Counted from the stretch's first letter, positions 1,148 to 41,073 are shown. The stretch is 45,157 nucleotides of DNA from an uncultured Candidatus Micrarchaeota archaeon (GCA_903893865.1 CAITNU010000060.1:1-45157), one strand, 5' to 3'. The notes: generated from the letters alone by a model not told the origin. Numbers and translations: made by a program.

Positions 1148-1819
1148 TTGAAAAAAACTGGTAGAACGATTCTCGTTATCGTCGTTTTGCTCGCGCTCGC
1201 AATCGCCGCGTACTACGCAGGCGTTTTCAGCGCATTCGGTTTTACTCCAGTCCAGCAAAGCGGCGGTGGAAGCATAGCGGGATTAACGCAGTTAACGAGT
1301 CTGTTCGAGCAACGCGACGCTTTCCTTGACGCGGCCGCGGCGAACGCGCGTGATTACGGCGTTCAGCACGCTGCCGACTTCGTTTTCTTCAAGCATCCGA
1401 CGCTTGGTTACGTCGTGAATTACCCCGTTGGTTACGCTGCTGAAACCGATCCTGACGATGCGACGAGTTTCCGCGCGTCCGCGATTTCTCCGATTTCTTC
1501 TTCAGGCGAAACGTTCGACGTTCGAATTTCCAGCAACGATTTCACGCAAACGGATTTCGATGACGTGAAAGCGGGTTTTGGAAGCGAACTCGTTTCATCG
1601 CACGCCGGCGTCTTGAACGGCAAACACATTTTCGTTTACACGCTGAAGACTCCATCGGATTTTGCGAACGAGACGGCTTTCGTGAGGACGGCTTTTTACC
1701 CTGAATGCCAGCAGCCGGACGGAACGCGTTACACGGCGATGCTTTTGGCGGCAGTTCCTGAAAAGCTTTCGACGGACCTCGACTTAGCGGATTACTTTAT
1801 TTACTCGTTCAAGTGCTGA
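1148..1819 (+). CDS. hypothetical protein with N-terminal membrane anchor or signal
   Basis: TTG start at 1148 preceded by AGGTGG about 8 nt upstream. N-terminus MKKTGRTILVIVVLLALAIAAYYAGVF is a basic n-region plus hydrophobic helix. The rest is soluble-looking with no recognised family. Confidence 0.6.
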   Translation: MKKTGRTILVIVVLLALAIAAYYAGVFSAFGFTPVQQSGGGSIAGLTQLTSLFEQRDAFLDAAAANARDYGVQHAADFVFFKHPTLGYVVNYPVGYAAETDPDDATSFRASAISPISSSGETFDVRISSNDFTQTDFDDVKAGFGSELVSSHAGVLNGKHIFVYTLKTPSDFANETAFVRTAFYPECQQPDGTRYTAMLLAAVPEKLSTDLDLADYFIYSFKC

Positions 1820-1900
1820 AGCGCGCTGAAAAAGTGCTGAAATGCGCTGCAAAGTCGAGAAAAAAGTTTGGAAGCGCGATAATGGTTCGAACGTGATTTC

Positions 1901-4900
1901 ATGCGAAAAACCTTTTTCTTGCTCATTGCTTTTGCGGCATTGTTTCCAACGTTTTTCGTGAACGCAGAGTTGTCGCCGGGGCAAGTCACGGCTTGCGGCG
2001 TCATTGGTTCGGCGGGCTACTATTACTTGAACGGAAACATCACGGTGGACAGTGACCCATGCATTCTTATTGATACTAACGACGTGGTTTTCAACGGGCA
2101 GGGTAACGCTTTGGTGGGCGATGGTTCGAAAACGGCGATACGCATTTTCACGGATGATTCAACCAGTAACGTCACTATCAAGAACACGGTTATTGACAAC
2201 GTGGATACAGCGCTTACTATTGCCGGCGGCAGTCCTTTCAATTATTTGACTCTTTTAAACAACGTGGTTGCGAACACGGCTAACGGTTATGCTTGGAGCG
2301 TAAGCAGCGGCGCCAATAATTTGACTATCGAGAACAACAACGTTTCAGTTTCAAAGGGAGGCGGCGGCGTTGTTTACATCACGGGTTACGCCGGTAACGT
2401 AACTATCAAGAACAATGTTTTCGACGGGCAAGGCAATAGTGGCGGATCAGCTCAATCAATCTTGTATTTAGATGGCGTGAACAACGCCTTGATTTCAGGC
2501 AATTCCTTCATCAACTGCCAGGCTAACGATTGCCAACACGCCATTTACTTGGCTAACGGCGGGGAAAACGTTTCTTTCATCAACAACAACGTTTCTTATT
2601 TCAAATCATACGGGATTCTTATTGACGACGCGGGTAGCCATAACGTATCGTTCGTCAACAACACTTTCGACGACGGCGGTAATCAAAGCAACGGCATTAC
2701 TTCCTACGGTTCGCTTCACACTATTTACAAAAACACTTTCACGATGACCGGCGGCGGAACAACCGCTATTTACATTGAAACGAGCGGTGATCCGGATAAC
2801 GTTTCAGACAACGTTTTCAACGTGAATACTACCAGAGTCGTTGGTTTGAATGGCGGCGGGGGCGTTGGCGAGGTTTTCAGCAACAACGTGATTAACCATA
2901 CGGGCACGGGCGAGTACGCTTTTACTGAAAACGCTAATAACTTGACTGCGAGAAACAACACTGTTTTCACTATTAGTGGTTCCGGAGCGTTCGATATCAG
3001 CGGCTCGAACGTAACCGTTGCAAACAACTCGATTAACTGCAGTGGTTCAAGTGCTAACGCGATTCTGCTTGACGGCGCTGGCGGATTGAACAACGTTAGC
3101 TACAACGTAGTCAACAGTAGTGGTGATAGCGGAATAGGCGTTTATCTTCAGAACGGCGGCAACAATACGGTTGCGTTCAACAACATTACGTCTTCCGGAA
3201 ACGAAATTCAAAGTTACAGTTCAAACAACTTGTTTTTTAACGACACGCTCGGCTCGGCGTATCCGACAACAATCAGTTTCACGTACGCCTCCAGCAACAT
3301 TAGCCTGAAAGACGATTGCAATCCCGCCAGTTATCAAGGCAACATCAGTTGCGTTAAAGTAATTGTACCTGGAGCGGGAGTTGGAGAGTGGATTAGCTTA
3401 AACATTTCTTATTCAAGCATAGCTCAAACCAATTTGGTGATGAAAGAGATAGCTCCAAATGGCACGTCTACTAGAACTGGCGGCGTTAATACGGCGCAGA
3501 AATACGTTTATTCTGGTTCCGTGACGCCAACTCAAGTGGGCACTTTTGTGTTCGTTCCAGTCATCGACTCTGCGCCGCCGCAGTATTCGAATTTGCTTGT
3601 AACTCCGGCCAACAATTCAGCCTATTCGCCAAGCCAAACTACGGTATTTAACGCAACGTGGACTGACGACGTTGCTTTGGACACGGTAATCTTGGATTTT
3701 AACGGGACTAATCACACGGTTTCAACGCACAGCGGAAGCGAGTATTACTACAACGCGAGCGTGCTCGCCGCAGGCTATTACAACTACGTTTGGTACGCGA
3801 ACGACACTGCGACTAACTGGAACTCGACGTCCACGCGCACTTTCGTCGTTGCGCAAGCGAGCGCAAGCGCCTCGTTGTTATTGAACGGTTCCGCGAACAA
3901 TTATTCCGCAGAGTATCCGCAAAGCGTAAACGCGACCGCTTCGTGCGGTTACGGAACGCCGACGCTTTACCGCAACAGTTCAAGCGTTTCGAATCCGGAC
4001 ATCGTCACGCTCGCGGCAGCGTATTACAATTACACTGCGGTTTGCTCCGGCAACGCGAACTATTCCGCGAGTTCGGTAACTCGTTTCTTCACTCAAAACC
4101 AGAATTCGACTTGGGCGTTAACGCACTTGCTGAATTCGAGTGCTACAAGCTTGAGCGCGACTTTTCCAGTTACCGTCAACGACTCGTGTTGGACGAACGC
4201 GGGTTTCACAGTAACGACGCAAGAGAATGGAACTCAAACCGGAAGCGGAACGAGCGTGGCTTACTATGTGAACCCGCCTGCTGGAACGCGCAATTTCACT
4301 TGCTTTACTGCTGGAAACGCGAACTACTCTGCAAAAACCAGCACGTTTTATGCTGAAATCGCTAAAGCCGCAACGAATGCGAACCTGTTGCTCAACGGTT
4401 CGGACGGCGACGCAACAATCACTTTCGGCCAAACAAGCAATGCTTCTTGCTACGCAAGCGGGGTCACTCCGAGTTTAACGCGCAACGCGAGCGTCGTTTC
4501 GAATCCTAATGTTTTGAATCTCGGTTTCGGTACTTACGCTTACAATTGCAGTGCGGCTGGCAACGAGAATTATTCCGCGAGTTACGAAACGCATTCTCTC
4601 GACGTCGGCAAGGTGAGTTCGCTTGCTTTCAACAATCTTTACTTGAACGGCAGCGCTGCGAGCTTGTCGTTCGCTTTTGGAAATACGAGCAACGCTACCG
4701 CGTGGACAACGCTCGCCGAAGGCAGCGTAACGCTTTACCGGAACGGCTCGAACGTTTCGAACCCGGAAATCGCTGGGCTCGCGGTTGGAACTTGGAATTA
4801 CACGAGCGCTTTTTCCGGCGCAACTAATTACAGCAACTCGAACCAAATGCTTTTCGTAGAAGTCGCAGCGACGCCCACTCCGACTCCGAGCCCGTCTGCA

Positions 4901-15384: not shown

Positions 15385-16422
15385 ATGGCACCTACAATTT
15401 ACATAAACATGCCTAGCGTCCGTCGTACTGGAAGAGATTCATGGCTTCGCTGGACTACTCATGCGCTGGAAGCTCGGGCTGGACGCGAGGTTTTGCGAGA
15501 TGTTCATGAAGGTATAAGTGAGTCTGCACGTAAAAAGCAATTTTCAACCACTCTTCGCCTAACCAAGATGTTATACTGGCTTAAAAATAGAAAAATGCTT
15601 GACTCCCACAAAATCGAGAACGAGGTCCACTTGCTCGTGGTCGATAATGCTATGCTATACAAAGAGAAACCGCTTGAAAAAACTCACTCGCCTAACGCGT
15701 TAGAATTAGCTAAGGTATTGAACAAAATCGGAAACAAGTACGGCGTGTTCGTACACTACCTGATTGTCACGCCAGAAATCATAAGAGAATTGTTTCCTAG
15801 CGGCGTGCCCTTCGACTCGCACTTGGTGCATATAGCCAACGCAAGGCCAAAGACTGGCCCGGGTGAAGCCACTAACTTAGGATTCGCTTACATGCGGACA
15901 CACCAAGAATTTTTTCTAAATTCGTCTGACGAGAAACGCGATGTTTTGATATCGCGAGTGCCTGACGACATTAAACTACCGATGAAAAAAATAAAGTGGG
16001 TGAACGCCGCCAGGCCTGAGGAGAAAATGCATAGAAACGTTTTCTTTGACATTGAAGACATCGTCAAGGGTGCGATAATCCCGACTCCGGGTTCCCGCGG
16101 ATATGATTTTGATGGGCACAAGTATAAGTATTCAGGACGAGGCGCAGTGTATCGTGTTTTTCAGGGAAAACCAAGTGAGTTTTATTATTATGGAACTCGT
16201 TTCGGCAAAGACAAAGGAGTCAAACACTCGAAAAATGTCCGCGAATTTAACATGCCTAACTACCTCTTTCACGGAAAAAGAAGTACCTGGAGCAAATCAG
16301 GCACAAAGAGTGATGTTTTCGGTTGGCTAATCCCAGGAGTAACTCCAATAGAGGGATTAAACCAACTAATAGTCAGCAAGATTATCGCGGCTTCTGGAAT
16401 AAAGCGGCCGACAAAAACTTGA
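15385..16422 (+). CDS. hypothetical protein in a compositionally atypical (lower-GC) gene
   Basis: ATG at 15385. A long clean 345-aa ORF with no strong competing ORF. Codon choice differs visibly from its neighbours (AGA/AAA/AAT/ATA-rich). No family recognised. Confidence 0.65.
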   Translation: MAPTIYINMPSVRRTGRDSWLRWTTHALEARAGREVLRDVHEGISESARKKQFSTTLRLTKMLYWLKNRKMLDSHKIENEVHLLVVDNAMLYKEKPLEKTHSPNALELAKVLNKIGNKYGVFVHYLIVTPEIIRELFPSGVPFDSHLVHIANARPKTGPGEATNLGFAYMRTHQEFFLNSSDEKRDVLISRVPDDIKLPMKKIKWVNAARPEEKMHRNVFFDIEDIVKGAIIPTPGSRGYDFDGHKYKYSGRGAVYRVFQGKPSEFYYYGTRFGKDKGVKHSKNVREFNMPNYLFHGKRSTWSKSGTKSDVFGWLIPGVTPIEGLNQLIVSKIIAASGIKRPTKT

Positions 16423-25913: not shown

Positions 25914-28900
25914 CTAGTGCTTCACCGCTTTGACGTAAATTGTGCCGGTGTAAGTCTTCTTCAACTGGTTTTGCGGCACGTTTACGAAGAAGAAAACGTC
26001 GCGGTAAACTGCCGATACCGGTTTAGGGATGTTCACCCAGTTCGTGTAGTTCACTAGGGTTCCAATCTGGCAAGCGCCGGACTTGAAGAAAGGAGACAAT
26101 TCGGTTAGACAAGAACCAACTGCGCCCGAGTTGTTGGAAACCGTTATGTTAGCGACTTTAAGCACGCCTCCTGCGCCCGATAAGTCGCTGCCGTTCAACG
26201 ATAAATCCACTGCCACGTTCGTGTTGCTTGAAATCGTCACCTGGCATTGCTGCGTGTCAGAACGCGTTCCGTTCGCGGTGCCAGGCGTGAAGCCGGTTCC
26301 GAGATTCAAGGCGGAACAATTGATGGTCATGTCTATGATTTCCACGTGGGATATCGTGAAGTAGTAGTAAGTCAAGTTGCTGCCCCAATGGCCAACCGTA
26401 TCGTTTACGTAGACGGTGAAATTCGCTTCGCCGTCAGGCTGGCTCGTCACGTTGAAGTAACAATTCGTTCCGCTGCGAGTCATAGTCAAATTAACGTTCG
26501 TACTATTCGGGTAAACGTAGTTGAGCAAGCAAGTGTCGGGATTCGTTTCAGTGAAAGTCACGTTGATATAGGAATAATTGTAGTCTTGGGTGGAACCGTT
26601 GAGGGGAGTGGGATTAACGTAGATTATGCTCGCGGGCGCAGTCTTGTCTATCGTGATGTTCCGCGTTTCAGTCTTGTTTTGGTTCCCAGATTGGTCGACA
26701 GCGAAACCGTAGTAATCGTAAACTCCGTCGCTCAAGCTCGTAAAATTGTTTTCGAGACGGTACGCGCTGTTGTTGAAGGAAGCGTTGATTTCCTGTTCTG
26801 AAAGCGAGCGGTTCCAAACCCGAATTTCATCCAACGCGCCAGTAAACCAATTGTCACCCTTACCAAAATACATATAGTCGCCAGAATCGCTTATCGCACC
26901 ACTGGTTTCTTTACTCACGTCCGAAACGCCGTTCAAGTAAATCGACAAGTAAGTGGAATTGAATACGGCGGCAACATGATACCACGTGTCGTTGGAAAGC
27001 GCGGTGGCGCCAGTCACATCCTGTGAAGGCAAATCCGGCACTTGAAAATAAATTTTGCGTTCAGAATTGAGACGAACGTCCCAGTCACCAGCCCGATAAA
27101 CCAAATCCTCGTCTCCGTACGAGCCGCGGTAAGGATACTTAACCCAAAAATCTATTGAGAGCGCGCTGCTGATGCTGTTTAAACTATCAGAATTAGGAAC
27201 TTGAATTTCGTCATCGTTTCCGTCGAATTGAGCGCCGCAGCCGAACCTGCCAGCACAAGTCCAGTTTTCGCTTCCTTCAGGGTAAAGCGTTCCGTTGTTG
27301 CCCCATGTGCTGTTATCGTACGCCGTAGCTCCAGAGCCTTCCTCGAAACTCCAGTAACCGATTAGCGAGCGGTTCCAATCAACGAACGCACCGCCAGGAT
27401 TCGCGTCGGTCACACTGACGTTCACGTAAGCGTAATCGTAGTTCGTCAAGTTATTGTTCGGCGGCGTAGGGTCAACGAACGCGGGCGTCGGCGGAGTGAC
27501 GTCAGCCAGCTTGCTGAAAGATTGGAACTCGTCAAATTCTTTGAAACCATAATCTCCGCAATCACCACCACCTGACCGAGTATCAAAAAGAATTTTCAAG
27601 TATTTTCCCGTTGCGGCCGTAAACGAGCAATTATACCAAGCTAAGCCGCTGCCGATTAACTCGCAACTGCCTAAACTGTCGCCCCAATTCGCTGGATCGT
27701 TGGAAACATAGATTTCTGAAACCGCGCATACATTGCTGTCCTTGTCAGGCGCAGTGTAAATTTGGAGTTTAGAGTGCGTGTACAGCGTGCAATACTCGTA
27801 AGCAATCCAGTGCTGTTCTTCGGCAGAGTGTCCCCACCGGGTACTGGTGTCGTTGTCGATGGTGTTCGTTGCAGGGCTATCACCTTCTTCGCCGCACTTA
27901 TCGTAAACCGCGTGCGGCGTAACCCAGTTCCAGAGAGACGTGAAAGTCAATGCTTGTTGTTCGCTTACGCCCCAGTTTCCCGCGCTGTCGTTAACCCACA
28001 TTCTATAAACGTAATCCCCGCTGTCGGTCAGCGTCGCGTTGTAGTAACAATTCGTTCCAACTCGCGTCGCCGAATAATTCGAGTCGTTGATTTCAAGCAA
28101 GCAGGAATCCGGGTTCGATTCGGTGAAAGTGACGTTAACGTAAAAATAGTCTTGCGTTAAATTAGAGTTGTTGACGGGAGTAGGACCGACGTAAACGATG
28201 TTCGACGGCGGAGTCACATCAATAGTAAACCCGTACTGCGACAAATTACTACCCCAATTACCAGCACTATCGTTAACGTAAACAGTAAAATTCGCCTGCC
28301 CATCACCCTGCGTCGTAACATTAAAATAGCAATACGCAGCCACACCCGCCGCCTTCGTCATCGTTAGGTTGACGTTCGTGCTGTTCGGATAAACGTAATT
28401 CAACAAGCAAGTGTCGGGATTCGATGCCGTGAACGTAGCATTAACGTACGAGTAATTATAATTGCGCCAAGAATTGTTTGCAGGCGTTGGCGAAACGTAA
28501 GCGATACTCGACGGCGGCGAGATTATAGTGAGCGTCCTGTTGTTCGACCACGCTACGTTGCCGGCAGAATCATCGCATCTCGCGCCCCATATGAATGTTG
28601 CTTGAGTTAAGCCGGATATCGAAGCATTCCACCACGTATCGTTTAATAAACCGCCACTGCTCTGCTCGCTTCCAAAACCACTTGTTGGTTCAGGAGAAAC
28701 AAACTTACGAATGAATGTCCAGTCTATTTTTTGAGTGCCGGTTCCCGCCTTTTGATACCAATGATGTAGGTTATAACTTCCTGTAGGAACATTACTTGTT
28801 ACTACTGATTCACTTCCATCATCCAGAGTATGTGAGACTGTCGTTGAATTTCTTCTTACTTCAATAACGTGATAAGCTCCAGCAAAAGCGGTCACTTGTG

Positions 28901-31900
28901 TCTGTGAATTAGCACCATTCGTAAATGCTCGTATATAATAGTTATATGGAGAACCATAATATCTAATTACCGTGGCGCCATAATCGCCAGTTGTTGGACT
29001 GTTATATAATACTTCTCCAGCTCCTTTATTCCACCAACCAAAACCTTGCTCGAGATAACTTCCTCCTTCATTATACCAGTTTACACTTGACCTTAAAGCG
29101 TAATCGTATCCGAGAGTTGTTGTTCTAGCGGCAGAAGCAGCTGAAGTGCCGTTTGGGTCTAATGTAAGAATTCCTCCAGAAACTGAACCAAGAGTTAAAC
29201 TCCAACCAGTTGAATCGTCCCAAGTAGTAGAACCATCAACACCAGTATTAGTTATATTGCTTGCACTTGAAGCGCCGGCGTTGCCGTAATACATGTAGAA
29301 AGTGTAGTTGGTCGTCGTAATGTTTTGGTCTACTTCAACCCAGACTATAGCCCAGTTGCCGTCGCTCTTGTTCTCAAGCCAGTAATCTAATTGAGTGTTT
29401 TCAGAGCCGTTATAAAACCTTAAATCAGAAAAATCACTTTTCATATCAGAATCATAAGTTACGTTTAATTTTACTTGATAATTCGTTCCCGTGTAACCGC
29501 TTGAGACAGAAACATTTATTGGTTTCTTCCGGCTAGAATTAGTTGCTTTCACTTGCCAAGTTCCGGTGTCATTTGCCCATATTTGTAAAGTGCTTAGGCC
29601 AACGTTATCAGAACATTTCGAGTCAAACACTACCGTTGAGCTTGACGAATTATAATTGTCAACGGGATTCGTTCCGAGCGAAACTGTTGGTGCAGTCGTA
29701 TCTATCGTGATAGCCCGCGTTTCCGTCTTGTTCTGGTTCCCAGCAGCATCAACCGCAAAACCATAGTAACTGTAATTACCATCACTCAACCCAGTGAAAT
29801 TGTTTTCCAAACGGTACAAACCGTTGTTGTAGGACGCGTTGATTTCCTGTTCCGAAAGCGTGCGATTCCAAATCCTAACTTCATCAATCACACCACTAAA
29901 CGCAGTAACCGAATAAGCGCCTTCATACCGCCCAATAGTAACGTTGTCAGAAATCGATTGAATGCTATTACAAACCTCTCCAGCTACGCTGTCGCTGTAA
30001 TTAGTCCAATTCATCAAGTTTCCGTTAACCCAAATACTAACGTTTCCCGTACCAGCATTAAACACTCCAACCAAATGAGTCCAAGTATTAGCCGTCAAAA
30101 CAGTCGGAGAAGTAGCGTCACACCGAGTATAAGAAGGACTATTCTTTTCTATGACCGCCATTGCCGGTTTTCCGTCACTACCAATTTCAATACGATACGC
30201 TTCAACGTCTCCACCAGCGCCATTCACTTTCCCAACCACCAAACCTCGACCGCTATCCGCCGGGTAAACCCAAGCCTCGAGAGTCAAATTACCAGTAATA
30301 CTCAAACTAGAAGCGTTAAGACAATTCACGAAATCATCATTATTATCGAAACTCAAACCGTAACCAAATTTACCGCTCGAGTTGTAAGTCGGGCCATTAG
30401 TCAACGCACCATTATTCCCATAACTCGAATTATCAAAAGCAGTCGTCCCACTGCCTTCACTGAAAGCCCAGTAACCCACAAGCGAGCGATTCCAATCAAT
30501 GAATGCTGCACCCGGATTCAAGTCAGTAACGCTAACATTCACGTAAGCATACTTGTTTTTCGTCAAATTACTGTCAGGCGGAGTCGGGCCAACGAACGCC
30601 GGAACAGGCTTCGTCATGTCAATGTAGAACTTGTACGTCGAGAGATTGCTGCCCCAATTCCCAGCTGAATCGTTGACGTAAACCGTGAAATTCGCCTGCC
30701 CATCACCCTGAGTCGTAACGTTGAAATAACAATACGTACCGGTTCCAGCTGCTTTAGTCATCGTTAAATTCACGTTCGTCGAATTCGGGTAAACGTAGTT
30801 AAGCAAACACGAATCCGGATTTGATTCAGTGAAAGTCGCGTTAACGTACGAGTAATTATAGTTTTGGTAAGAATTGTTTGACGGCGTGGGACTAACGTAA
30901 GCAATACTCGCAGGCGCAGTCGTGTCGACGTAAAACTTGTAAGTCGTCACGTTCGAACCCCAATTGCCGGCAGTATCGTTCACGTAAACCGTGAAATTCG
31001 GTTGACCGTCACCCTGAGTCGTAACGTTTTTGTAGCAGTACGCGGCTGCGCCCGCTGCTTTCGTCATCGTTAAATTCACGTTCGTGCTGTTCGGATAAAC
31101 GTAGTTTAACAGGCACGAATCGGGATTCGTTTCAGTGAACGTAGTATTGATGTAAGCGTAAGCGTAACTCTGGTAAGAATTGTTTGAAGGCGAAGGACTA
31201 ACGTAAGCAATGCTCGCGGGCTTCGTCACGTCAATCCTGAAACTATAAGTCGACACGTTCGAACCCCAATTTCCCGCCGAATCGTTCACGTAAACCGTGA
31301 AATTCGGTTGCCCATCACCCTGCGTCGTAACGTTGAAATAACAATACGCGGCTGCGCCCGCTGCTTTCGTCATCGTCAAGTTAACGTTCGTTGAATTCGC
31401 GTAACGATAATTCAACAAGCAAGTGTCTGGATTCGTTTCAGTGAAACTCGCGTTAACGTAAGAATAATTATAGTTTTGAAGCGAATTGTTTGACGGAGTC
31501 GGACTAACGTAAACAATACTCGCAGGAGCAGTCCGATCAATATAAAACTTGTACGTCGACACGTTGCTACCCCAATTTCCAGCAGTATCGTTCACGTAAA
31601 CCGTGAAATTCGCCTGCCCATCACCCTGAGTAGTAACGTTGAAGTAGCAGTACGCGGCTGCGCCCGCAGCTTTCGTCATCGTCAAGTTAACGTTCGTTGA
31701 ATTCGGGTAAACGTAATTCAACAAACACGAGTCAGGATTAGTTTCGGTGAACGTGGCGTTAATGTACGAGTAATTATAATTCCTGAAAGACGCGTTCGCC
31801 GGACTCGGAGTAACATAAACAATACTCGCAGGCGCAGTCTTATCAATAGTAAAACCATACTGCGACAAATTCGAACCCCAATTACCTGCCGAATCATTCA

Positions 31901-34900
31901 CGTAAACAGTAAAATTCGCGTAACCAGCAGGCTGATCACTAACATTAAAATAACAATACGGCGAAGAACCCGTAACCTTCGTCATCGTCAAATTCACGCT
32001 CGAAGAATTCGAATAAACATAATTCAACAAACACGAATCAGGATTAGCTTCCGTAAAAGTCACATTAACGTACGAATAATTATAATTCCTGAAAGACGCG
32101 TTCGCCGGACTCGGAGTAACATAAACAATACTCGCCGGCTTTGTCGTGTCGATGGTAAACCCGTATTGTGACAAGTTACTACCCAAATTACCGGGAGTAT
32201 CATTCACGTAAACCGTAAAATTCGCGTAACCATTACCTTGAGTAGTAACGTTGAAGTAACAATTCGTTCCGCTCGCCTTTGCTGTCAAATTCACGTTCGT
32301 CGAATTCGGGTAAACGTAGCTGATTATGCACGAGTCGCTTGGATTCGCTTCCGTGAAAGTAACGTTAATGTAGGCGTAAGCGTAATTCCGGAAAGAACCG
32401 TTGAGCGGCGTCGGAGTAACGTAAGCGATGCTTGATGGCGCAGTCTTATCAATAGTAAAACCATACTGCGACAAATTCGAACCCCATCTGCCTTGCGAGT
32501 CATTAACGTAAACCGTGAAATTCGCGTAACCAGCAGGCTGGTCAGTAACGTTAAAATAACAATAACGCGCACCGCCCGTTCCAACCACTAGCGTCATCGT
32601 TAAATTCACGTTCGTCGAATTCGGGTAAACGTAGTTCAACAAGCAAGCGCTGGGACTCGCTTCCGTGAACGTCACGTTAATGTAAGAATAATTATAGTTC
32701 TGAATAGAACCATTCAACGGACTCGGAGTAACATAAACAATACTCGCAGGAGCAGTCGTGTCGACGGTAACAGTGTAGTTCACGTTGCTCCTGTTGCTTA
32801 ATGACACGTCGCCGTTGTCCCAACACTCGACGTTACACAAGTAAATGCCTTCCGCTGCGAACGTGTAGTTGATGCCGTTCACGGTATTGTTCGCGATGCT
32901 GCTTGTGCCGTTCCAATTCGTTTGATTTAAGCTCGTGCCGTTGCTGTAAAACAAAAGCGTCGTGCAGTTCTTGAAGCCCGAGTTGTCTATTGGCGTGAAA
33001 GTGAAGTTGACGTTTGCCGAGGCGCTGGTCGTGCCGTTGGACGGCGCGCTCAAGCTCACGTTCGGCGCGGTGTTCGCGTAACTCGCGAAAATCGCGCTGT
33101 AGTAGGATGGAGTCATGTCGGTGGTGTTGATGCCAGTCCAGTAAATGGCGTGGTAGTGCGTGGCGGAGGAATAATTGGTTGTTGCCCCTGAGGCCTTGTA
33201 GTTCACGCCTGCCGTAGCGCTGGCGGCGGTTTTGTCGGTCAGGGCAGTGTGCGTGTGGCTAGCGTTGCTGGTAGTAATTAAGGTGCCGTAAGCGCTCGTC
33301 GCGTACAAAAACTTTTGGTAAAAGTCGTCCGCTGATGAAGCGGAGCGCGAAGTCCATTCGACGGGCGGAGTCGCGTTCCACAACGCGTACATTCCGTTGG
33401 GCACGGGGCGAGTGTCGTTCAGGTAAGCAATAATAATTTTCGACGTAACTGGCACCGCTTCGATTGCAGTCGTCGTTCTGGAGGCTGAAGTGTTCGCCTC
33501 GTGCGTGTGCACGCCATTAGCAACAGATGCCGTGGTGGTGGAGGTCAAACCCGTGGCGTTGGAGGTAGTGGTCCACGAAATATTCCACGTGTGCGTGTGA
33601 GTCCAACTCCCGCCAGTCACTTGAGCCGTCGCGTTGCCGCGAATGTAGTAGCCGTCCGCGGCGCTGAACCGCGTCCAGTTCGCGGGCAAACTAGTCGTGT
33701 TGAAGAACGCGATTACGCCTGAGGGAAGCGTTGCGGGAAGCCCGCTCGTGTTACAGCGAATTACGAGGAAGTCGTAGTAAGGCGGAAAATTCGAGGCGGT
33801 CGTGTTAGCGGTGTACATTACCTTGTGCGCGTGAGTCGCGGGCGCGCCAGTGTTCGTAGTGACTGTAGAAAGAGTTCCGGCTGAAGCCGTACCCAGGAAG
33901 GCCTGGTAATTGTGTGCGTGGTAATCGCTTCCGCCGCTCCCGCCGTAAGTCGCGTCAGGCACGATGAATTTCCGGTAAAACGGGTCGGTAGCGTAACAAG
34001 AAATGCACGTCCACCCGCTCGGAACGTTAGCAAGAGTGTTGTTAAACAACAAAATCATGTGCGCGTTGCTGGCGTCGTTGTAAGCGAAAACGCTTTGTCC
34101 GCCGAAATCGAAGCGCAGAACGTGCCGCCGCGCTTTCAACACCTTGCTGTTTTCGCTGGCAGTCTCGTTGCACGAGTAATTCGGAACGACAACGCTGCAC
34201 TCGTTTTCCGCGCAGTTTGCGCCGCGCCACTCGTACGGCACTAGCCGGTCCCCGCAACGGATTTCGAGGAAGCGCAGGTCGTAAAGCGTTTCGTTCTCGC
34301 TTGAATCGCTCCAACGCGTGTAATTCTCGGTGTAATTCAAGTCGCGCGTTGCGGTAATCGTTAAATCCGCCGCTCCGTTCGTCTCGAAATTAACCGTCCA
34401 GTTGCCGTAAAGCTGCGGGTGCGAGTGAACGTTCAAAATCGTTATGTTGATGCCGAAAGACTGGTTGTCCGTTAATTCGGGTATCACCCACGATATTTCG
34501 TGCACGAAACCGTTCGAGTCGCCGTTCGTGGCTTTGAAAACAAGTTTTTTCACGAGAAAACCGTTCTCGCTGATTTCGCGCAACTCATCGTCCGTCAAGT
34601 TCAAGCCGCTCAAGTTTTGGCTCGCCGATAAAACCCACGATAATTCGATGTCGTCGAGATTGTTTACTTCAACAGGAAGTGAAGCGTAAACACTCACGTT
34701 CTCGTAATGCATTGGCGCGGTTACGACGACGCGCTTGGAACCGAAACCCGTTTGTTCCTCGCTTGCTTGCGGAGCGCCCGTATAGTATTCGACTTCGAGT
34801 TCGCTGAAATCGCCTCTGCCGCCTCGAACGCGCAAACCCTTCGCGCCGCGCACAGCGCTTTTGACGCCTGTTTCAGTAGCGTTTTCGGCGCCGTTCTCGG

Positions 34901-36719
34901 CACCGTTTTCGACGAGTTTCTCGGCATTGTTTTCGAGCGCGACTTCGGAAACGCTTAAATCTGTCCAGTCGAGAGTTTGGGACGCTTGAGCTGTTTCCGT
35001 TTCAACGCTTTCCGCTCCAGCAAATTGCACTATTTGCGCAGCCGCAACAGCGCCAACTCCTTCAGTGCTGTTTGCTTCAACAGTTGCTTCAGCCGCGCTG
35101 GCAGGCGTTTCAGGCGTGGTGTTTGCAATCGCTTCAGTAGCGGTCGCAAGCGCAGGCGCTTCGGGTGCAACGGCATATGCTGGAACCGCGTAATCCGCGT
35201 TAGCCAGCGTCGCGTTTTGCGCTTCGGGCGGCAACGCCACGACGAAATCGCGCGCGCGTTCTCTCAAAACGATTTTCTTCGTCCACTTGACTGGCTTGCC
35301 AACAGCCGCGTTGGCTTGCTCGGTTGTTTCTGAAGCGACTTCGACGTTCGCGTTGTATTCAGGCGTAGGCAAAGGCGAGAGCGAAGGAGTCGCGGTAGGC
35401 TCCGAAGCGTTGACACGAATAGAGCGCGACTCGTTAGCGCAATCAGCGCCCGGCAAGCTGCCGTAAAAAGCGACGACGTTGATGTCGTAAACACCTTCTG
35501 CAGCATAAGAGTGGTTTCCAGTAGATTCAGTCGTCCACGCCCACGGCGGCTCGGAATCAGAAAGCGTCAGTTCACTCGAGTTCGAGCCGTCACCCCAAAA
35601 AACGATGACGTGGTAATTCTTTTGATTTTGGTCGAGGAATGGTTCGAGAACTCCGTAAACGGATAATTCGTCGCCTACGACTACCTCGCTTTCGTCTTGC
35701 TGGCTAAAAACGCTTAATCCAGTAACGTTTAATCCGGTTTTCTTGCAGCCGAACTCGTTTGGCGCGATCGGCGAAGGCACCGCTTCAGGCGAAGGTGAAG
35801 ACGAAGTTTCCGGCGAAGCTTCGAGTGAAACGCTTGGCTCGGGCGTTGGTTCGAGAGTGACGACTTCAAACGACGGTTGCGGGCACGCGGCGGGCGTAGG
35901 ACAAGCGTTAGACGATGGAGTCGGCGTGGCGTTTGCTTGACTAATCGAGAAAACGACGCGCGTTGCGCCGTAGTAATCGTTTTTGCTTGCTTCAACGAGA
36001 GCTTCGTAATCTCCTTGCGTTGAAGCGTAAAAGCGTTGCTCGAAAACGCCTTCATCGCTCCCCGCTGTTGAGTAAAAACCGTTTTCGGAACCCGTAATCG
36101 TGATGTTGACTTCGGCGAACGGAACGCTTTGTTGAGCGAATGAAACGCTTCCGGCGACAGCGTATTCTCCCGGCGTTTCTTCAGGCTTCGTCAGCGCTGC
36201 ATCGACGACGAGATTTCCTTCATGGTAATAGAACGCTTTTTGCGTCGAACCAGTCTTGTTTTCTGCGTTCGCAGTAACGCTCAGCAAATAAACTCCGGCT
36301 GGCGCTTCGCTTGGCAGCGTCACGCTTGAATCAAGCGCGCTTCCAGCAGTTAAAGTAAAATTGTATTCGTACTGTGCGCCGCGCATTTCGATGAAATAAG
36401 CGATTTCGCTCGACTCGTTCTCGAGTCCCGAGACGCGCGCTGAAAAACTAACGGGCTCGCCCATGAATTCATGGTATTCGACCGAAAGCGTTACGCCCAG
36501 CGCGCCAGGCGGGTTTTCGAAGAATAAGGCGCCGCCGCCCTGCTGCCCGCCGCTAAGCGGCGAAAGCAAGTCAGGGCGGCGCGCGAGCGCGGCGTGAGGC
36601 GCGAGAGCAAAAAATTCGCAAGCCGAAAAGCCGACTGCGAACAGCAAGGCTATTGCTAGCATCGCTTTCGCTGTCTTCCGTTCGGGTTTGAGCGCTTTCA
36701 AGCGCGTTACTGCTCCCAC
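25914..36719 (-). CDS. giant (3601 aa) secreted mosaic surface protein / putative adhesin
   Basis: Uninterrupted 10.8-kb ORF with a GTG start. N-terminal signal (KTAKAMLAIALLFAVGFSAC). Domains recognised by eye:
- PKD-like domain (VFWGDGS...GNHSYAAEGVYDINVVAF)
- Acidic Ala/Glu/Thr low-complexity region
- Three tail-collar-like units, each with two HxH motifs
- At least 10 copies of a ~100-aa Ig-like repeat
- Two LamG/ConA-like modules (WNRSL[VI]GYW.F.EGSG... [IL]DE[VI]R[IV]WNR[ST]LSEQEINAS)
- DUF2341 (DLRFYNGSENTQLDYWLE...WVEV...YMYYGN) plus a ConA-like jelly roll ending IDWTFIRKFVSPEP
- F5/8-type-C (discoidin)-like domain (TIDNDTSTRWGHS..QHWIAYEY)
- Cys-containing C-terminal domain
There is no C-terminal TM segment. 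N-x-S/T sequon density is extremely high. Confidence 0.95.
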   Translation of the reverse strand: MGAVTRLKALKPERKTAKAMLAIALLFAVGFSACEFFALAPHAALARRPDLLSPLSGGQQGGGALFFENPPGALGVTLSVEYHEFMGEPVSFSARVSGLENESSEIAYFIEMRGAQYEYNFTLTAGSALDSSVTLPSEAPAGVYLLSVTANAENKTGSTQKAFYYHEGNLVVDAALTKPEETPGEYAVAGSVSFAQQSVPFAEVNITITGSENGFYSTAGSDEGVFEQRFYASTQGDYEALVEASKNDYYGATRVVFSISQANATPTPSSNACPTPAACPQPSFEVVTLEPTPEPSVSLEASPETSSSPSPEAVPSPIAPNEFGCKKTGLNVTGLSVFSQQDESEVVVGDELSVYGVLEPFLDQNQKNYHVIVFWGDGSNSSELTLSDSEPPWAWTTESTGNHSYAAEGVYDINVVAFYGSLPGADCANESRSIRVNASEPTATPSLSPLPTPEYNANVEVASETTEQANAAVGKPVKWTKKIVLRERARDFVVALPPEAQNATLANADYAVPAYAVAPEAPALATATEAIANTTPETPASAAEATVEANSTEGVGAVAAAQIVQFAGAESVETETAQASQTLDWTDLSVSEVALENNAEKLVENGAENGAENATETGVKSAVRGAKGLRVRGGRGDFSELEVEYYTGAPQASEEQTGFGSKRVVVTAPMHYENVSVYASLPVEVNNLDDIELSWVLSASQNLSGLNLTDDELREISENGFLVKKLVFKATNGDSNGFVHEISWVIPELTDNQSFGINITILNVHSHPQLYGNWTVNFETNGAADLTITATRDLNYTENYTRWSDSSENETLYDLRFLEIRCGDRLVPYEWRGANCAENECSVVVPNYSCNETASENSKVLKARRHVLRFDFGGQSVFAYNDASNAHMILLFNNTLANVPSGWTCISCYATDPFYRKFIVPDATYGGSGGSDYHAHNYQAFLGTASAGTLSTVTTNTGAPATHAHKVMYTANTTASNFPPYYDFLVIRCNTSGLPATLPSGVIAFFNTTSLPANWTRFSAADGYYIRGNATAQVTGGSWTHTHTWNISWTTTSNATGLTSTTTASVANGVHTHEANTSASRTTTAIEAVPVTSKIIIAYLNDTRPVPNGMYALWNATPPVEWTSRSASSADDFYQKFLYATSAYGTLITTSNASHTHTALTDKTAASATAGVNYKASGATTNYSSATHYHAIYWTGINTTDMTPSYYSAIFASYANTAPNVSLSAPSNGTTSASANVNFTFTPIDNSGFKNCTTLLFYSNGTSLNQTNWNGTSSIANNTVNGINYTFAAEGIYLCNVECWDNGDVSLSNRSNVNYTVTVDTTAPASIVYVTPSPLNGSIQNYNYSYINVTFTEASPSACLLNYVYPNSTNVNLTMTLVVGTGGARYCYFNVTDQPAGYANFTVYVNDSQGRWGSNLSQYGFTIDKTAPSSIAYVTPTPLNGSFRNYAYAYINVTFTEANPSDSCIISYVYPNSTNVNLTAKASGTNCYFNVTTQGNGYANFTVYVNDTPGNLGSNLSQYGFTIDTTKPASIVYVTPSPANASFRNYNYSYVNVTFTEANPDSCLLNYVYSNSSSVNLTMTKVTGSSPYCYFNVSDQPAGYANFTVYVNDSAGNWGSNLSQYGFTIDKTAPASIVYVTPSPANASFRNYNYSYINATFTETNPDSCLLNYVYPNSTNVNLTMTKAAGAAAYCYFNVTTQGDGQANFTVYVNDTAGNWGSNVSTYKFYIDRTAPASIVYVSPTPSNNSLQNYNYSYVNASFTETNPDTCLLNYRYANSTNVNLTMTKAAGAAAYCYFNVTTQGDGQPNFTVYVNDSAGNWGSNVSTYSFRIDVTKPASIAYVSPSPSNNSYQSYAYAYINTTFTETNPDSCLLNYVYPNSTNVNLTMTKAAGAAAYCYKNVTTQGDGQPNFTVYVNDTAGNWGSNVTTYKFYVDTTAPASIAYVSPTPSNNSYQNYNYSYVNATFTESNPDSCLLNYVYPNSTNVNLTMTKAAGTGTYCYFNVTTQGDGQANFTVYVNDSAGNWGSNLSTYKFYIDMTKPVPAFVGPTPPDSNLTKNKYAYVNVSVTDLNPGAAFIDWNRSLVGYWAFSEGSGTTAFDNSSYGNNGALTNGPTYNSSGKFGYGLSFDNNDDFVNCLNASSLSITGNLTLEAWVYPADSGRGLVVGKVNGAGGDVEAYRIEIGSDGKPAMAVIEKNSPSYTRCDATSPTVLTANTWTHLVGVFNAGTGNVSIWVNGNLMNWTNYSDSVAGEVCNSIQSISDNVTIGRYEGAYSVTAFSGVIDEVRIWNRTLSEQEINASYNNGLYRLENNFTGLSDGNYSYYGFAVDAAGNQNKTETRAITIDTTAPTVSLGTNPVDNYNSSSSTVVFDSKCSDNVGLSTLQIWANDTGTWQVKATNSSRKKPINVSVSSGYTGTNYQVKLNVTYDSDMKSDFSDLRFYNGSENTQLDYWLENKSDGNWAIVWVEVDQNITTTNYTFYMYYGNAGASSASNITNTGVDGSTTWDDSTGWSLTLGSVSGGILTLDPNGTSAASAARTTTLGYDYALRSSVNWYNEGGSYLEQGFGWWNKGAGEVLYNSPTTGDYGATVIRYYGSPYNYYIRAFTNGANSQTQVTAFAGAYHVIEVRRNSTTVSHTLDDGSESVVTSNVPTGSYNLHHWYQKAGTGTQKIDWTFIRKFVSPEPTSGFGSEQSSGGLLNDTWWNASISGLTQATFIWGARCDDSAGNVAWSNNRTLTIISPPSSIAYVSPTPANNSWRNYNYSYVNATFTASNPDTCLLNYVYPNSTNVNLTMTKAAGVAAYCYFNVTTQGDGQANFTVYVNDSAGNWGSNLSQYGFTIDVTPPSNIVYVGPTPVNNSNLTQDYFYVNVTFTESNPDSCLLEINDSNYSATRVGTNCYYNATLTDSGDYVYRMWVNDSAGNWGVSEQQALTFTSLWNWVTPHAVYDKCGEEGDSPATNTIDNDTSTRWGHSAEEQHWIAYEYCTLYTHSKLQIYTAPDKDSNVCAVSEIYVSNDPANWGDSLGSCELIGSGLAWYNCSFTAATGKYLKILFDTRSGGGDCGDYGFKEFDEFQSFSKLADVTPPTPAFVDPTPPNNNLTNYDYAYVNVSVTDANPGGAFVDWNRSLIGYWSFEEGSGATAYDNSTWGNNGTLYPEGSENWTCAGRFGCGAQFDGNDDEIQVPNSDSLNSISSALSIDFWVKYPYRGSYGDEDLVYRAGDWDVRLNSERKIYFQVPDLPSQDVTGATALSNDTWYHVAAVFNSTYLSIYLNGVSDVSKETSGAISDSGDYMYFGKGDNWFTGALDEIRVWNRSLSEQEINASFNNSAYRLENNFTSLSDGVYDYYGFAVDQSGNQNKTETRNITIDKTAPASIIYVNPTPLNGSTQDYNYSYINVTFTETNPDTCLLNYVYPNSTNVNLTMTRSGTNCYFNVTSQPDGEANFTVYVNDTVGHWGSNLTYYYFTISHVEIIDMTINCSALNLGTGFTPGTANGTRSDTQQCQVTISSNTNVAVDLSLNGSDLSGAGGVLKVANITVSNNSGAVGSCLTELSPFFKSGACQIGTLVNYTNWVNIPKPVSAVYRDVFFFVNVPQNQLKKTYTGTIYVKAVKH
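30612..32756 (-). repeat. seven tandem in-frame ~300-312-bp coding repeats (residues 1322-2036 of the giant protein)
   Basis: Unit consensus: T[AK]PASI[VA]YV[ST]P[ST]P.N.S..NY.Y[SA]Y[IV]N.[TS]FTE.NPDSCLLNYVYPNSTNVNLTMTKAAG...YCYFNVT.QGDGQ.NFTVYVND[ST]AGNWGSN[LV]S.Y.F.ID. Units share identical nucleotide strings longer than 30 nt (e.g. TTTCGTCATCGTCAAGTTAACGTTCGTTGAATTCG at ~31367 and ~31667). More diverged copies lie at 28212..28523, 27930..28211 and 26346..26645. Confidence 0.9.
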
Positions 36720-38162: not shown

Positions 38163-39254
38163 TTAAAAGCTCATGCTGCCGATGCCTTTCCACGCCTCGC
38201 TTTGCGCGGTTGCGACGGCGCCCTTCACGCGCGACTCGTGCCCGAGCACTTGCGGCGAATTCACGCCCGTAACGATGCTCGTGACGATGATTTTGTCGCC
38301 GAGTTCGGGGTTGATGCGCGCGCCCCACTTGACGTAAGCATGCGGGTCGAACGAATCAGTTATTCCTTCCCCGATCTTGACTGCTTCGCCTAGCGTTAGG
38401 CTTGGCCCGCCGTTGATGAGCACCAACGCGCCTTTAGCGCCGGCGTAATCAACGTCGAGCAGCGGGTGTTCGAGAGTCGTATCAATCGCGCTCTGCACTT
38501 TGTTCGTGCCGCTTCCCTCGCCGATGCTTATCATCGCGATTCCCGCGCGCTCCATTATCATTCGCAAATCAGCGAAATCGATGTTCATCAAGCTCGGCAG
38601 CATCACGGTGTCTGCGATTCCTTTTACGCTGCGCGCGACGAGAGTGTCCGCGACCGCGAACGCCTGGTTCATTGGCAGGTTCGGAACGTACGAGACGAGG
38701 CGGTTGTTGTCGATTATTACGACTGTGTCGCACGACTCGCGCAACGCGTCGAGTCCCCAATCCGCTTTTTCTAGGCGGGCGCGCTCGAGCGCGAACGGGA
38801 ACGTTACCATGGCGACGACTATCGCGCCGTTCTTTTTCGCGACGTCGGCGATTACGGGCGCGGCGCCGGTGCCTGTTCCGCCTCCCATTCCAGCCGTAAT
38901 GAAAACGAGTTCGGAATCCTTCAAGAGTTCTGCGAACTTGTCGCGCGCCTGTTCAGCGGCTTTCATCCCGATTTCCGGGAATCCGCCTGCGCCCAAGCCT
39001 TTAGTCAGTTGCGCGCCGATGAGCAGTTTCTTGCCTGCTTCGCAAACTTGCAAGTGTTTTTGGTCCGTGTTTACAGCGATTGTTTCCGCGCTCGCTAGGC
39101 CCATCTTGTGCAAGCGCGTGACGGTATTCGTGCCTCCGCCTCCGACGCCTACGACGGTTATCTTCACTTTCGAGGGCGTAAAGTTTTTGCCGACTACTTC
39201 CGGCAAGCTGTTAGTGCCCCCGTACTTGAGGGCGTCCGAAACCAACGAATTCAC
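38163..39254 (-). CDS. ftsZ: cell division GTPase FtsZ (paralogue b)
   Basis: Tubulin/FtsZ signature GGGTGTGAAPVIA, N-terminal GVGGGGTNTV, and T7-loop region DNNRLVSYVPNLPMNQAF. GTG start with AGGAGG upstream. Confidence 0.95.
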   Translation of the reverse strand: MNSLVSDALKYGGTNSLPEVVGKNFTPSKVKITVVGVGGGGTNTVTRLHKMGLASAETIAVNTDQKHLQVCEAGKKLLIGAQLTKGLGAGGFPEIGMKAAEQARDKFAELLKDSELVFITAGMGGGTGTGAAPVIADVAKKNGAIVVAMVTFPFALERARLEKADWGLDALRESCDTVVIIDNNRLVSYVPNLPMNQAFAVADTLVARSVKGIADTVMLPSLMNIDFADLRMIMERAGIAMISIGEGSGTNKVQSAIDTTLEHPLLDVDYAGAKGALVLINGGPSLTLGEAVKIGEGITDSFDPHAYVKWGARINPELGDKIIVTSIVTGVNSPQVLGHESRVKGAVATAQSEAWKGIGSMSF

Positions 39255-39632: not shown

Positions 39633-40694
39633 TTAAGAAATTATTTCGATGTCGTAACCGGGCTCCTTCACCGCTTTCTTTTCTGCGTACGAGCGGCCCG
39701 TGATGTTCGGGCTCTTCACGCCAGTCACGATTGCGGTAACCTCGATTTTGCCGTCGTAATCGGGAACCAAGCGCGCGCCCCACTTGACGTTCGCCTGCGG
39801 GTCCATCTGCTCCGTAATCATTTCTCCCGCGCGAATCGCGTCGCCGAGCGTCAGGTCCGCGCCGCCAGCAATGTGGATGAGAGCGCCTTTCGCTCCCGCG
39901 AAATCAACGTCGAGCAAGCGGTTCTTCATTACGCCGTCAACCGCGTCGTCAACCTTGTTCGGGCCCTTGCCGCTGCCTACCGCAATCATTCCGACGTCGC
40001 CGTGCCCCATGATTCCACGCACGTCCGCGAAATCGATGTTGACGAGCGAAGGCTGCGTTATAGTGAAAACGAGTCCGCCGATCGCTTTAGCGAGAATCTC
40101 GTCCGCGACGAGGAAAGCCTGGTTCATCGGCAGGTTCGGCACGATTTGAACGAGACGATTGTTGTCGAGGATGATTACGCTGTCCGCGACTTCGCGCAAG
40201 CGCGCGATTCCGTCGTCCGCCTTGTTGACGCGCGCGCGTTCGAGAGCGAACGGGTAAGTCACCATGGCGACGACTATGGCGCCCGCGTCTTTCGCGATTT
40301 GCGCGATGACCGGCGAAGCGCCTGTTCCCGTGCCTCCGCCCATTCCGGCGCACAAGAACACGAGGTGCGAACCACTCAACGCTTTTTCGAGCGCGGGCCT
40401 GTCGACTTCAGCACACTTAGCGCCCACTTCCGGAAAACCGCCTGCGCCCAAGCCCTTCGTGACGCTGCGGCCTATAAGCATTTTCGTTACGCTCTCGTCG
40501 ATCATATTCAAGTGCTGCCTGTCGGCGTTGAGCGCTATGAGTTCAGCGCCTTTCACGCCCAAACGGCACAAACGGTTTATCGTGTTGTTGCCGCCGCCTC
40601 CGACGCCTACTACGCGTATTTTTATTTCCTCCAAGTCGTCGTTCGCCGCAGCTCGTTTTCCGCCGCCGAGCGCGCTCTTCACGATGTCTTCCAT
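39633..40694 (-). CDS. ftsZ: cell division GTPase FtsZ (paralogue a)
   Basis: GGGTGTGASPVIA signature, GVGGGGNNTI, DNNRLVQIVPNLPMNQAF. The ORF track starts at GTG 40700. ATG 40694 follows GAGGCGGTG and is preferred. Confidence 0.95.
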   Translation of the reverse strand: MEDIVKSALGGGKRAAANDDLEEIKIRVVGVGGGGNNTINRLCRLGVKGAELIALNADRQHLNMIDESVTKMLIGRSVTKGLGAGGFPEVGAKCAEVDRPALEKALSGSHLVFLCAGMGGGTGTGASPVIAQIAKDAGAIVVAMVTYPFALERARVNKADDGIARLREVADSVIILDNNRLVQIVPNLPMNQAFLVADEILAKAIGGLVFTITQPSLVNIDFADVRGIMGHGDVGMIAVGSGKGPNKVDDAVDGVMKNRLLDVDFAGAKGALIHIAGGADLTLGDAIRAGEMITEQMDPQANVKWGARLVPDYDGKIEVTAIVTGVKSPNITGRSYAEKKAVKEPGYDIEIIS

Positions 40695-41073
40695 TTGCAC
40701 CGCCTCTTGATTTTTTGTTTTTTAATCGCTCGTTTTTCTTTTTTCAGTAAAAAACGGCGCAATAACCACTCGCAAAGGATTTAAAAGCTTTTCTAATATA
40801 ACGAGATTAGCGGAACGATGGTTCCAGCGAAAAAAAATCGGGAAAAACGAGCAAAATCGGTTGAAATCGAAAAGCATATGTTTAAATATGGGGTTTTCCT
40901 ACCGTTTCCAGCAGCATCCACGCGGCTGAAAAGAGTGGGAAAAAGCAAAAAAAACGAAAAAACGACGTGGCCGCGTTTGAAAAGCAAAAAAAGCAAAGCG
41001 AAAAACGCGAAATCGATTGAAGACGGGGATTGAGAGGGACTGAAAGAAAATTCTTTTAGGGGGGAGTTGCCGT

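Follow-up and report, generated by a model that had tools for sequence, protein, structure and literature searches.

Giant surface proteins are thought to attach DPANN archaea and bacteria of the candidate phyla radiation to their hosts, and little is known about how the binding repertoires of these proteins change. Nested (inserted) domains are a known architectural class, in which the inserted domain has a fold with its termini close together. Proteins with DUF2341 (Pfam PF10102; MJ1470-like) share an N-terminal handle with the motifs YQVKL..YDSDM.SDFSDLRF...YMYYGN as well as a closing strand, DWxFxRKY..PEP. DUF2341 is present in predicted type-IV-pilus tip adhesins of archaea (PMC4858521) and, in Patescibacteria, which are ultrasmall symbionts, in proteins of >4000 amino acids (aa) for which a role in adhesion or host interaction has been proposed (PMC11809585). 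Here, we analyzed a giant surface-protein gene on CAITNU010000060.1 (assembly GCA_903893865.1), a complete metagenomic contig of 45,157 nucleotides (nt), hereafter called the window. In the protein that this gene encodes, a DUF2341 module with a concanavalin A (ConA)-like body is nested in an immunoglobulin (Ig)-like domain, in the loop after strand C', and the core of the module is likely of foreign, low-GC origin. The locus illustrates, clearly and with unusually well-defined limits, two known phenomena of surface proteins, domain nesting and sub-gene mosaicism, in a little-studied family and lineage. Throughout, residue r of the giant protein starts at window position 36719 − 3(r − 1), and coordinates of all features are collected in Table 1.

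An earlier, sequence-only reading of this DNA had placed a split Ig-like domain at 28515-29702, beginning at residues ~2341-2396 and resuming about 295 residues later. These coordinates are correct, with halves at residues 2341-2396 and 2691-2735. When the 294 residues between them (2397-2690) were deleted in silico, the joined halves aligned without a gap across the junction with uninterrupted domains, sharing 50% identity with P0006 (E = 2e-30) and 51% with P0122. At the junction, the giant protein reads ...WQVKATNSS/LLNDTWWNASISG..., where P0006 reads ...WTINQTNSS/PINNTVWSVLIQG.... Among the 264 homologues that we collected, 18 proteins have this Ig family in uninterrupted form, with 54 copies in all, and a profile hidden Markov model (HMM) of these copies matched the joined flanks over HMM positions 1-103 (E = 5.5e-37). 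Together with the gapless alignment, this match confirms that the two halves are one domain, as had been proposed. The uninterrupted comparator suggested at the time, residues ~1215-1320 of the same protein, proved to be a weak match (BLASTP E = 0.13), and external homologues were used instead. MAFFT misaligned the Ig homologues with the interrupted query, opening no 294-column gap; these alignments were left unused and the joined domain was modeled instead, from an alignment of 44 of the uninterrupted homologues. The resulting AlphaFold2 model was a single compact beta-sandwich, with a mean predicted local distance difference test score (pLDDT) of 93.9 and a predicted template modeling score of 0.83. 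Its strands lie at model residues 10-13, 21-23, 28-35, 40-48, and 54-59 in the N-terminal half and at 68-72, 79-88, 93-95, and 99-103 in the C-terminal half, so that the insertion junction (model residues 61/62) falls in loop 60-67, between strands 54-59 and 68-72. Foldseek matched the model to Ig-like, E-set, BIg, PKD, and Fn3 structures, and no Pfam family matched the joined domain at E ≤ 1. That this Ig family accepts a 294-residue domain in the loop behind its strand C' is useful for protein engineering.

The insert itself is DUF2341 plus a ConA-like jelly roll with a family-typical ending, as the sequence-only reading had recognized. Pfam DUF2341 scored 48.0 bits on the whole protein and 52.6 bits on the insert alone, against a cutoff of 23.4, and the insert aligned end to end with free-standing DUF2341 proteins of ~300-320 aa (51 modules, first homologue search). 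That first search gave only proteins of <700 aa; the giant homologues were recovered when 1.84 billion representative proteins were scanned in full with HMMER, which produced 5264 matches, mostly to giant proteins. With an HMM of the module, full-length modules were detected in 208 of the 264 collected proteins, 299 in total. In the giant protein, the insert opens with the first strand of the DUF2341 family (KKPINVSV) and closes with the family closing strand and tail (DWTFIRKFVSPEPTSGFGSEQ), the module end DWxFxRKF..PEPT being typical of the family. The AlphaFold2 model of the insert was a jelly roll with pLDDT mostly 80-96 and two weaker internal stretches, and Foldseek matched it to GH16 lichenases, the L-type lectins Emp46/47 and VIP36, and CBM66 (E down to 7e-6, probability 1.0, target TM-score 0.55-0.72). 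Given that the GH16 catalytic motif (ExDxxE or ExDxE) is absent from residues 2397-2690, we conclude that the module is not an enzyme. It is likely a carbohydrate or surface-ligand binding head for host-cell attachment, a role that agrees with the published links of DUF2341 to pilus-tip adhesins and giant symbiont proteins. The N- and C-termini of the jelly roll would meet, so that the module would hang off the loop while the Ig halves still close and the stalk stays continuous. A sequence search of solved structures gave no DUF2341 structure and none sharing sequence with the insert, and we found no function for the DUF2341 family.

The first strand of the insert (KKPINVSVSSG, 29505-29531) is similar to the displaced Ig strand (28611-28649), the one that in uninterrupted homologues normally comes after the junction (PINNSWWNVSVSG). 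This resemblance could be due to chance or be a trace of microhomology, and the KKPINVSVSSG motif is native to DUF2341 modules elsewhere. A transposon-type insertion was considered and rejected, as no direct or inverted repeats flank the insert.

The other 133 of 134 evaluable module blocks included none with halves of the split-domain Ig family on both sides. Given this and the 54 uninterrupted copies, nesting in this particular Ig family looks lineage-specific. Read by eye, and with weak HMM support, other beta-sandwich domains also host DUF2341 modules: there are two such cases in P0122 and two in P0181, and nesting is also seen in P0232. P0181 also has an uninterrupted copy of the domain that hosts its DUF2341 modules. 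In P0189, a tandem DUF2341 pair is nested in a distant relative of the split-domain Ig, at the same loop, again judged by eye and with weak HMM support. It seems from this reading that the DUF2341 module type was inserted repeatedly, into several unrelated beta-sandwich hosts. In P0122, the beta-sandwich that hosts the two modules differs from the split-domain Ig, and the body of one of these modules contains another large domain; the same protein has an F5/8C domain nested in the Ig family of the split domain.

Nesting is not confined to DUF2341 in the giant protein, which also has two Ig-like repeats bearing laminin G (LamG) modules, LamG 1 and LamG 2. LamG 1 appears to be nested too, because its flanks, once joined, can be aligned (positions 1-93) with an uninterrupted repeat of the same protein, residues 2844-2926 (E = 6e-9). 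The LamG 2 block is a paralogue that shares 48% identity with this block from end to end, and LamG 2, judged by eye, is very probably nested as well. Jelly rolls plugged into Ig-like stalk domains appear to be a theme of the giant protein.

Base composition sets the core of the insert apart from the rest of the gene. The sequence-only reading had described nt ~28640-29700 as A+T-richer, and this region indeed has a GC content of 0.408, versus 0.494 in the giant gene and 0.522 in the window; the shifts it had listed in synonymous codons (AGT/TCT/TCA, GGA/GGT, ACT/ACA, and others) are real in codon counts. The compositional profile along the gene is not flat. GC content at third codon positions (GC3) is 0.296 in the insert, versus 0.63 ± 0.05 in the 27 other open reading frames (ORFs) of the window, in which the lowest of 2778 windows of 294 codons had a GC3 of 0.469. 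The lowest 294-codon window of the giant gene, residues 2389-2682, coincides with the insert within 8 residues. A maximum-likelihood fit of two boundaries delimited residues 2483-2683 (28671-29273), with GC3 0.21 versus 0.51 outside and a log-likelihood ratio of 32.5 versus a maximum of 11.3 from 100 shuffles. The support intervals of the two change points are 2481-2490 for residue 2483 and 2653-2685 for residue 2683. Optimal partitioning of the whole gene recovered the same residues at three penalty settings, with GC3 0.18 (segments in Table 1 are those of the finest setting). The sharp composition breaks are therefore at 2482/2483, inside the module, and at 2683/2684, at its C-terminal end, and the return to host codons within the linker can be read directly in the DNA. 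The 3' edge of the block is sharp and lies at the module end, but the robust core is narrower than the block first described and its 5' side is patchy: the handle is mixed in composition, with GC3 0.29 in its first 52 codons (residues 2397-2448) and 0.74 thereafter.

Codon choice in the low block is consistent with this picture. TCG, CCG, and CGC are absent and GCG is rare (one codon), while AGT/TCA/TCT, GGA/GGT, ACA/ACT, GCT, TTA, AGA, and CCA are favored. A codon model of L001, a contig with 28% GC, fits residues 2483-2683 better than the host model does, and all other segments of the gene fit the host. The low-GC3 body is also poor in sequons, with 1.5 N-x-S/T per 100 aa versus 5.2 gene-wide and 8.4 in the repeats. 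Beyond the insert, the giant gene is a compositional mosaic, with GC3 of up to 0.80 at residues 1211-1320.

A low GC3 could also arise locally and without any transfer, from selection of rare or slow codons for co-translational folding of the nested domain or from a local mutational bias. The whole gene is compositionally heterogeneous, the amino acid composition of the body is unlike that of a low-GC proteome, and LamG 1, which is nested too, has a somewhat reduced GC3 (0.43), all of which would agree with a local cause. However, LamG 2, very probably nested, has a normal GC3 (0.55), and the edges of the low block are abrupt, within a few codons. Moreover, the shift affects nearly every listed amino acid family and CpG codons are removed, which is the signature of a genome-wide low GC content and not of a rare-codon set, and all near relatives that we fetched are in low-GC genomes. 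We therefore regard a purely local origin as improbable.

The nearest relatives of the handle are not those of the body. Depending on the measure, the handle (residues 2397-2482) shares 73-78% identity with those of P0182, P0001, and P0122, whereas the bodies of these three proteins are only 18-26% identical to the body at residues 2483-2683. The nearest body is that of P0131, with 45-47% identity, and the handle of P0131 shares only 40%. Over the 299 modules, handle identity is only loosely correlated with body identity (r = 0.21), and pairs of modules with handles ≥80% identical have a median body identity of 23%. The boundary between handle and body in the module HMM (column 87) corresponds to residue 2483, which is the GC3 change point. 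Contigs were fetched for these four nearest relatives only, and have GC contents of 27.7% (P0001), 32.9% (P0182), 33.7% (P0122, with an archaeal-type uS2), and 36.4% (P0131). Given its DivIC and prepilin-type neighbors, the genome encoding P0131 is bacterial. The modules of the four relatives have GC3 0.17-0.35, and at the patch corresponding to residues 2449-2482 they have 0.18-0.44, versus 0.74 in the giant gene. This patch is host-type sequence and not unaltered donor sequence.

The archaeal P0122 is the best relative of both Ig halves and of the handle, and the bacterial-type P0131 is that of the body. Insert and flanks thus have their best matches in different lineages as far as the body is concerned, whereas the handle goes with the flanks; the similarity of the body to P0131 is distant. 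P0122 (L024 3001-16107, 4368 aa, on a 34% GC archaeal contig) is the closest overall relative of the giant protein and has many uninterrupted copies of the split-domain Ig family. The near-handle relatives P0001 and P0182 are carried by L001 (JGI Ga0366840_1009053, 27.7% GC) and L025/L026; these contigs have many short, tightly packed ORFs without Pfam match and could be viral or plasmid-like, and P0182 is identical on ≥8 contigs. Further searches returned only Ig copies with ≤53% identity from metagenomes, only handle matches (35-41%) from viruses, and nothing when the body alone was searched for homologues.

The breaks inside the module, the host-type patch in the handle, and the discordant nearest relatives indicate a mosaic history or one of several steps. 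We tentatively favor the reading that the 201-residue lectin body was imported by recombination from a low-GC lineage, of ~30% GC, because it is at the conserved ends of the module that composition changes sharply, and the host-type stretch of the handle is directly upstream. Recombination would probably have been anchored in these conserved ends, namely YMYYGN, where the handle ends, and the closing strand DWxFxRKF..PEPT. Host-type codons would then be left in the handle end and in the linker, with foreign codons between them, and the body would be an exchangeable specificity cassette on a conserved handle.

Alternatively, the whole DUF2341 and ConA-like module could have been inserted once, from a low-GC donor, into an intact Ig domain, and the 34-codon patch could have appeared later by a short gene conversion or by selection on the most conserved residues. 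The near coincidence of the lowest GC3 window with the module fits a single insertion, as do the low GC3 of the first 52 handle codons, the apparently lineage-specific nesting, and the occurrence of the module elsewhere as a self-contained unit. However, the patch would require a second event and a host-adapted template, the nearest relatives of handle and body differ, and segmentation found no break at the N-terminal junction, the Ig N-terminal half and the first part of the handle falling into one segment with the LamG 1 block. We consider a single insertion possible, though less likely than import of the body. The original inference of recombination from a low-GC donor is accordingly upheld in part: the nested domain, the foreign codon core, and the relatives in genomes of 28-36% GC agree with it, but the absence of a break at the N-terminal edge of the module and the discordant affinities of handle and body do not.

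Several observations weigh against import of the body alone. The first handle codons are as low in GC3 as described above, and residues 2397-2448 are statistically inseparable from either the body or the upstream segment of GC3 0.37, which blurs the 5' limit of the foreign tract; the lineage-specific look of the nesting is a further point. The amino acid composition of the body is not AT-skewed (FYMINK 0.22, GARP 0.26), and bodies that diverge fast, rather than shuffling, could account for the weak coupling of handle and body in the family. No donor was found, nucleotide identity to the four relatives being 72-77%, over conserved stretches only, and no close orthologue with or without the insert was recovered, as the contigs of related bins end before this region. 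Given that neither a donor nor an insert-free orthologue was found, direction and timing of the transfer rest on composition alone. Structure prediction, which had been suggested as a check of the split domain, gave a confident single fold for the joined halves, but a model of the real 405-residue sequence gave the Ig halves a pLDDT of only 46-58, and reassembly in the uncut protein is therefore suggested by the excised construct. Finally, the contig comes from a single metagenomic assembly.

This last point raises the question of a chimeric contig, in which reads of a low-GC organism were joined via conserved DUF2341 sequence. The giant protein is known from this one contig, being the sole copy in our protein collection, and DUF2341 handles are conserved across organisms. 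On the other hand, a chimeric origin would require two crossovers, both in frame and together restoring exactly a complete module and a complete Ig domain, a nucleotide identity of only 72-77% with the nearest low-GC relatives is not enough for an assembly graph to be bridged, and both flanks belong to the same repeat array. An assembly artefact is very improbable on these grounds.

Diversity-generating retroelements are common in DPANN, lectin-fold variable regions are their typical targets, and the body is the hypervariable part of the DUF2341 family, so that targeted hypermutation of the body was also considered. Such a mechanism is scarcely credible here: no part of the insert is present a second time, as a template, in the 45 kb contig, which also has no second DUF2341, no reverse transcriptase was present among the larger ORFs scanned (most of those >150 aa), and the anomaly spans 600 nt with synonymous sites affected uniformly and not at adenine-specific positions.

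We thus retain, tentatively, the import of a lectin body into a resident module. Going beyond this locus, we speculate that DUF2341 modules are widespread insertable lectin cassettes. By virtue of their conserved handle and closing strand, they would fit into the loops of beta-sandwich stalk domains of many unrelated kinds, and the same ends would serve as recombination anchors for the exchange of hypervariable binding bodies between giant adhesins of ultrasmall archaea and bacteria. This generalization is suggested by the survey of modules but is doubtful at present; if it were true, body exchange across domains of life would retune attachment specificity, and the giant gene would be a case caught in the act, with its body still in donor codons. 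The locus offers a testable instance of likely sub-gene transfer, with a 603-nt body in donor-type codons amid host-type sequence, all within a nested module of an Ig-like domain. The separate evolution of DUF2341 handle and body is also a starting point for investigating what this large family does.

The methyltransferase gene adjoining the giant gene is 88% identical to a copy in a Candidatus Micrarchaeota genome bin and 73% identical to a copy in a Candidatus Norongarragalinales bin, which identifies the source organism as a DPANN archaeon. Other genes on the contig include RtcB, an S-layer protein, an ABC transporter, and several beta-helix or CARDB-type surface proteins. Two FtsZ paralogues adjoin each other at 38163-39254 and 39633-40700 on the (-) strand, just upstream of the neighbor of the giant gene. 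At 15385-16422, a 345-aa ORF without Pfam match has the lowest GC3 (0.46) among the other genes and may be another atypical segment. The giant protein has a hydrophobic N-terminal segment, abundant N-x-S/T sequons, and arrays of Ig-like repeats bearing jelly-roll modules; Pfam matches in it are DUF2341 (residues 2429-2504), two Laminin_G_3, F5_F8_type_C_2, and weak Big_13/Big_3_3. Residues ~900-1210 (window ~33090-34000) have no Pfam match and contain about six spaced H-x-H motifs (SDYHAHNY, ATHAHKV, WTHTHTW, GVHTHEA, ASHTHTA, and ATHYHAI), a region that we take to be reminiscent of phage tail-collar-type repeats.

Table 1. Features of the giant surface-protein gene, with window positions, residues of the encoded protein, and GC3.
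Feature	Window position	Strand	Residues	GC3	Remarks
Giant surface-protein gene	25914-36719	(-)			3601 aa, one ORF; from ORF list and translation
Seven tandem Ig-like repeats			1321-2042		~100 aa each, 72-87% identical; protein sliced and pieces compared
Ig-like repeat with nested LamG 1	29700-30593	(-)	2043-2340	0.43	Laminin_G_3
Split Ig-like domain with DUF2341 insert			2341-2735
Ig N-terminal half	29532-29699	(-)	2341-2396	0.375	Strands A-C'; aligns with first half of uninterrupted homologues
Inserted module	28650-29531	(-)	2397-2690	0.296	DUF2341 handle, ConA-like lectin body, and short linker
DUF2341 handle	29274-29531	(-)	2397-2482		Conserved N-terminal part of module
Host-like codon patch in handle	29274-29375	(-)	2449-2482	0.71-0.74	ENKSDGNWAIVWVEVDQNITTTNYTFYMYYGNAG
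Low-GC3 block	28671-29273	(-)	2483-2683		603 nt; variable ConA-like lectin body and closing strand DWTFIRKFVSPEPT
Linker SEQSSGG	28650-28670	(-)			Host-type codons agc gag cag agc agt ggc ggt; in segment of GC3 0.58
Ig C-terminal half	28515-28649	(-)	2691-2735	0.578	Last four strands; aligns with second half of uninterrupted homologues
Two further Ig-like repeats			2736-2930
F5/8C domain			2931-3075
Ig-like repeat with LamG 2, very probably nested	26646-27494	(-)	3076-3358	0.55	Laminin_G_3 at 3166-3312
One further repeat, then C-terminal region			3362-3456
Composition segment			1-697	0.54
Composition segment			698-1321	0.71
Composition segment			1322-2069	0.52
Composition segment			2070-2448	0.37	Starts upstream, in LamG block
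Composition segment			2449-2482	0.71
Composition segment			2483-2683	0.18
Composition segment			2684-3601	0.58

Compared with known systems, the locus shares with other nested domains a complete domain in a surface loop of its parent and parent halves that become contiguous once the insert is removed, but here the insertion additionally bears a compositional signature of foreign origin. Unlike other DUF2341 proteins, in which the module is free-standing or in tandem, the giant protein has its module nested in an Ig-like domain, and the body is of a rare subtype, its best relative among the 1.84 billion representative proteins being 45-47% identical. The predicted fold is similar to those of ConA-like jelly rolls (GH16 lichenases, Emp46/47, VIP36, CBM66, and LamG), with only 9-14% sequence identity, and the N-terminal DUF2341 handle is an extra element with respect to the GH16, L-type lectin, CBM66, and LamG families. 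Mosaic surface-protein genes, formed by intragenic recombination or partial-gene transfer, likewise show an abrupt intragenic codon shift and segments with different nearest relatives. In contrast to the known mosaic genes, the exchanged unit here would be a sub-domain cassette between two conserved anchors in a nested module, in an archaeal host and with no donor allele known.

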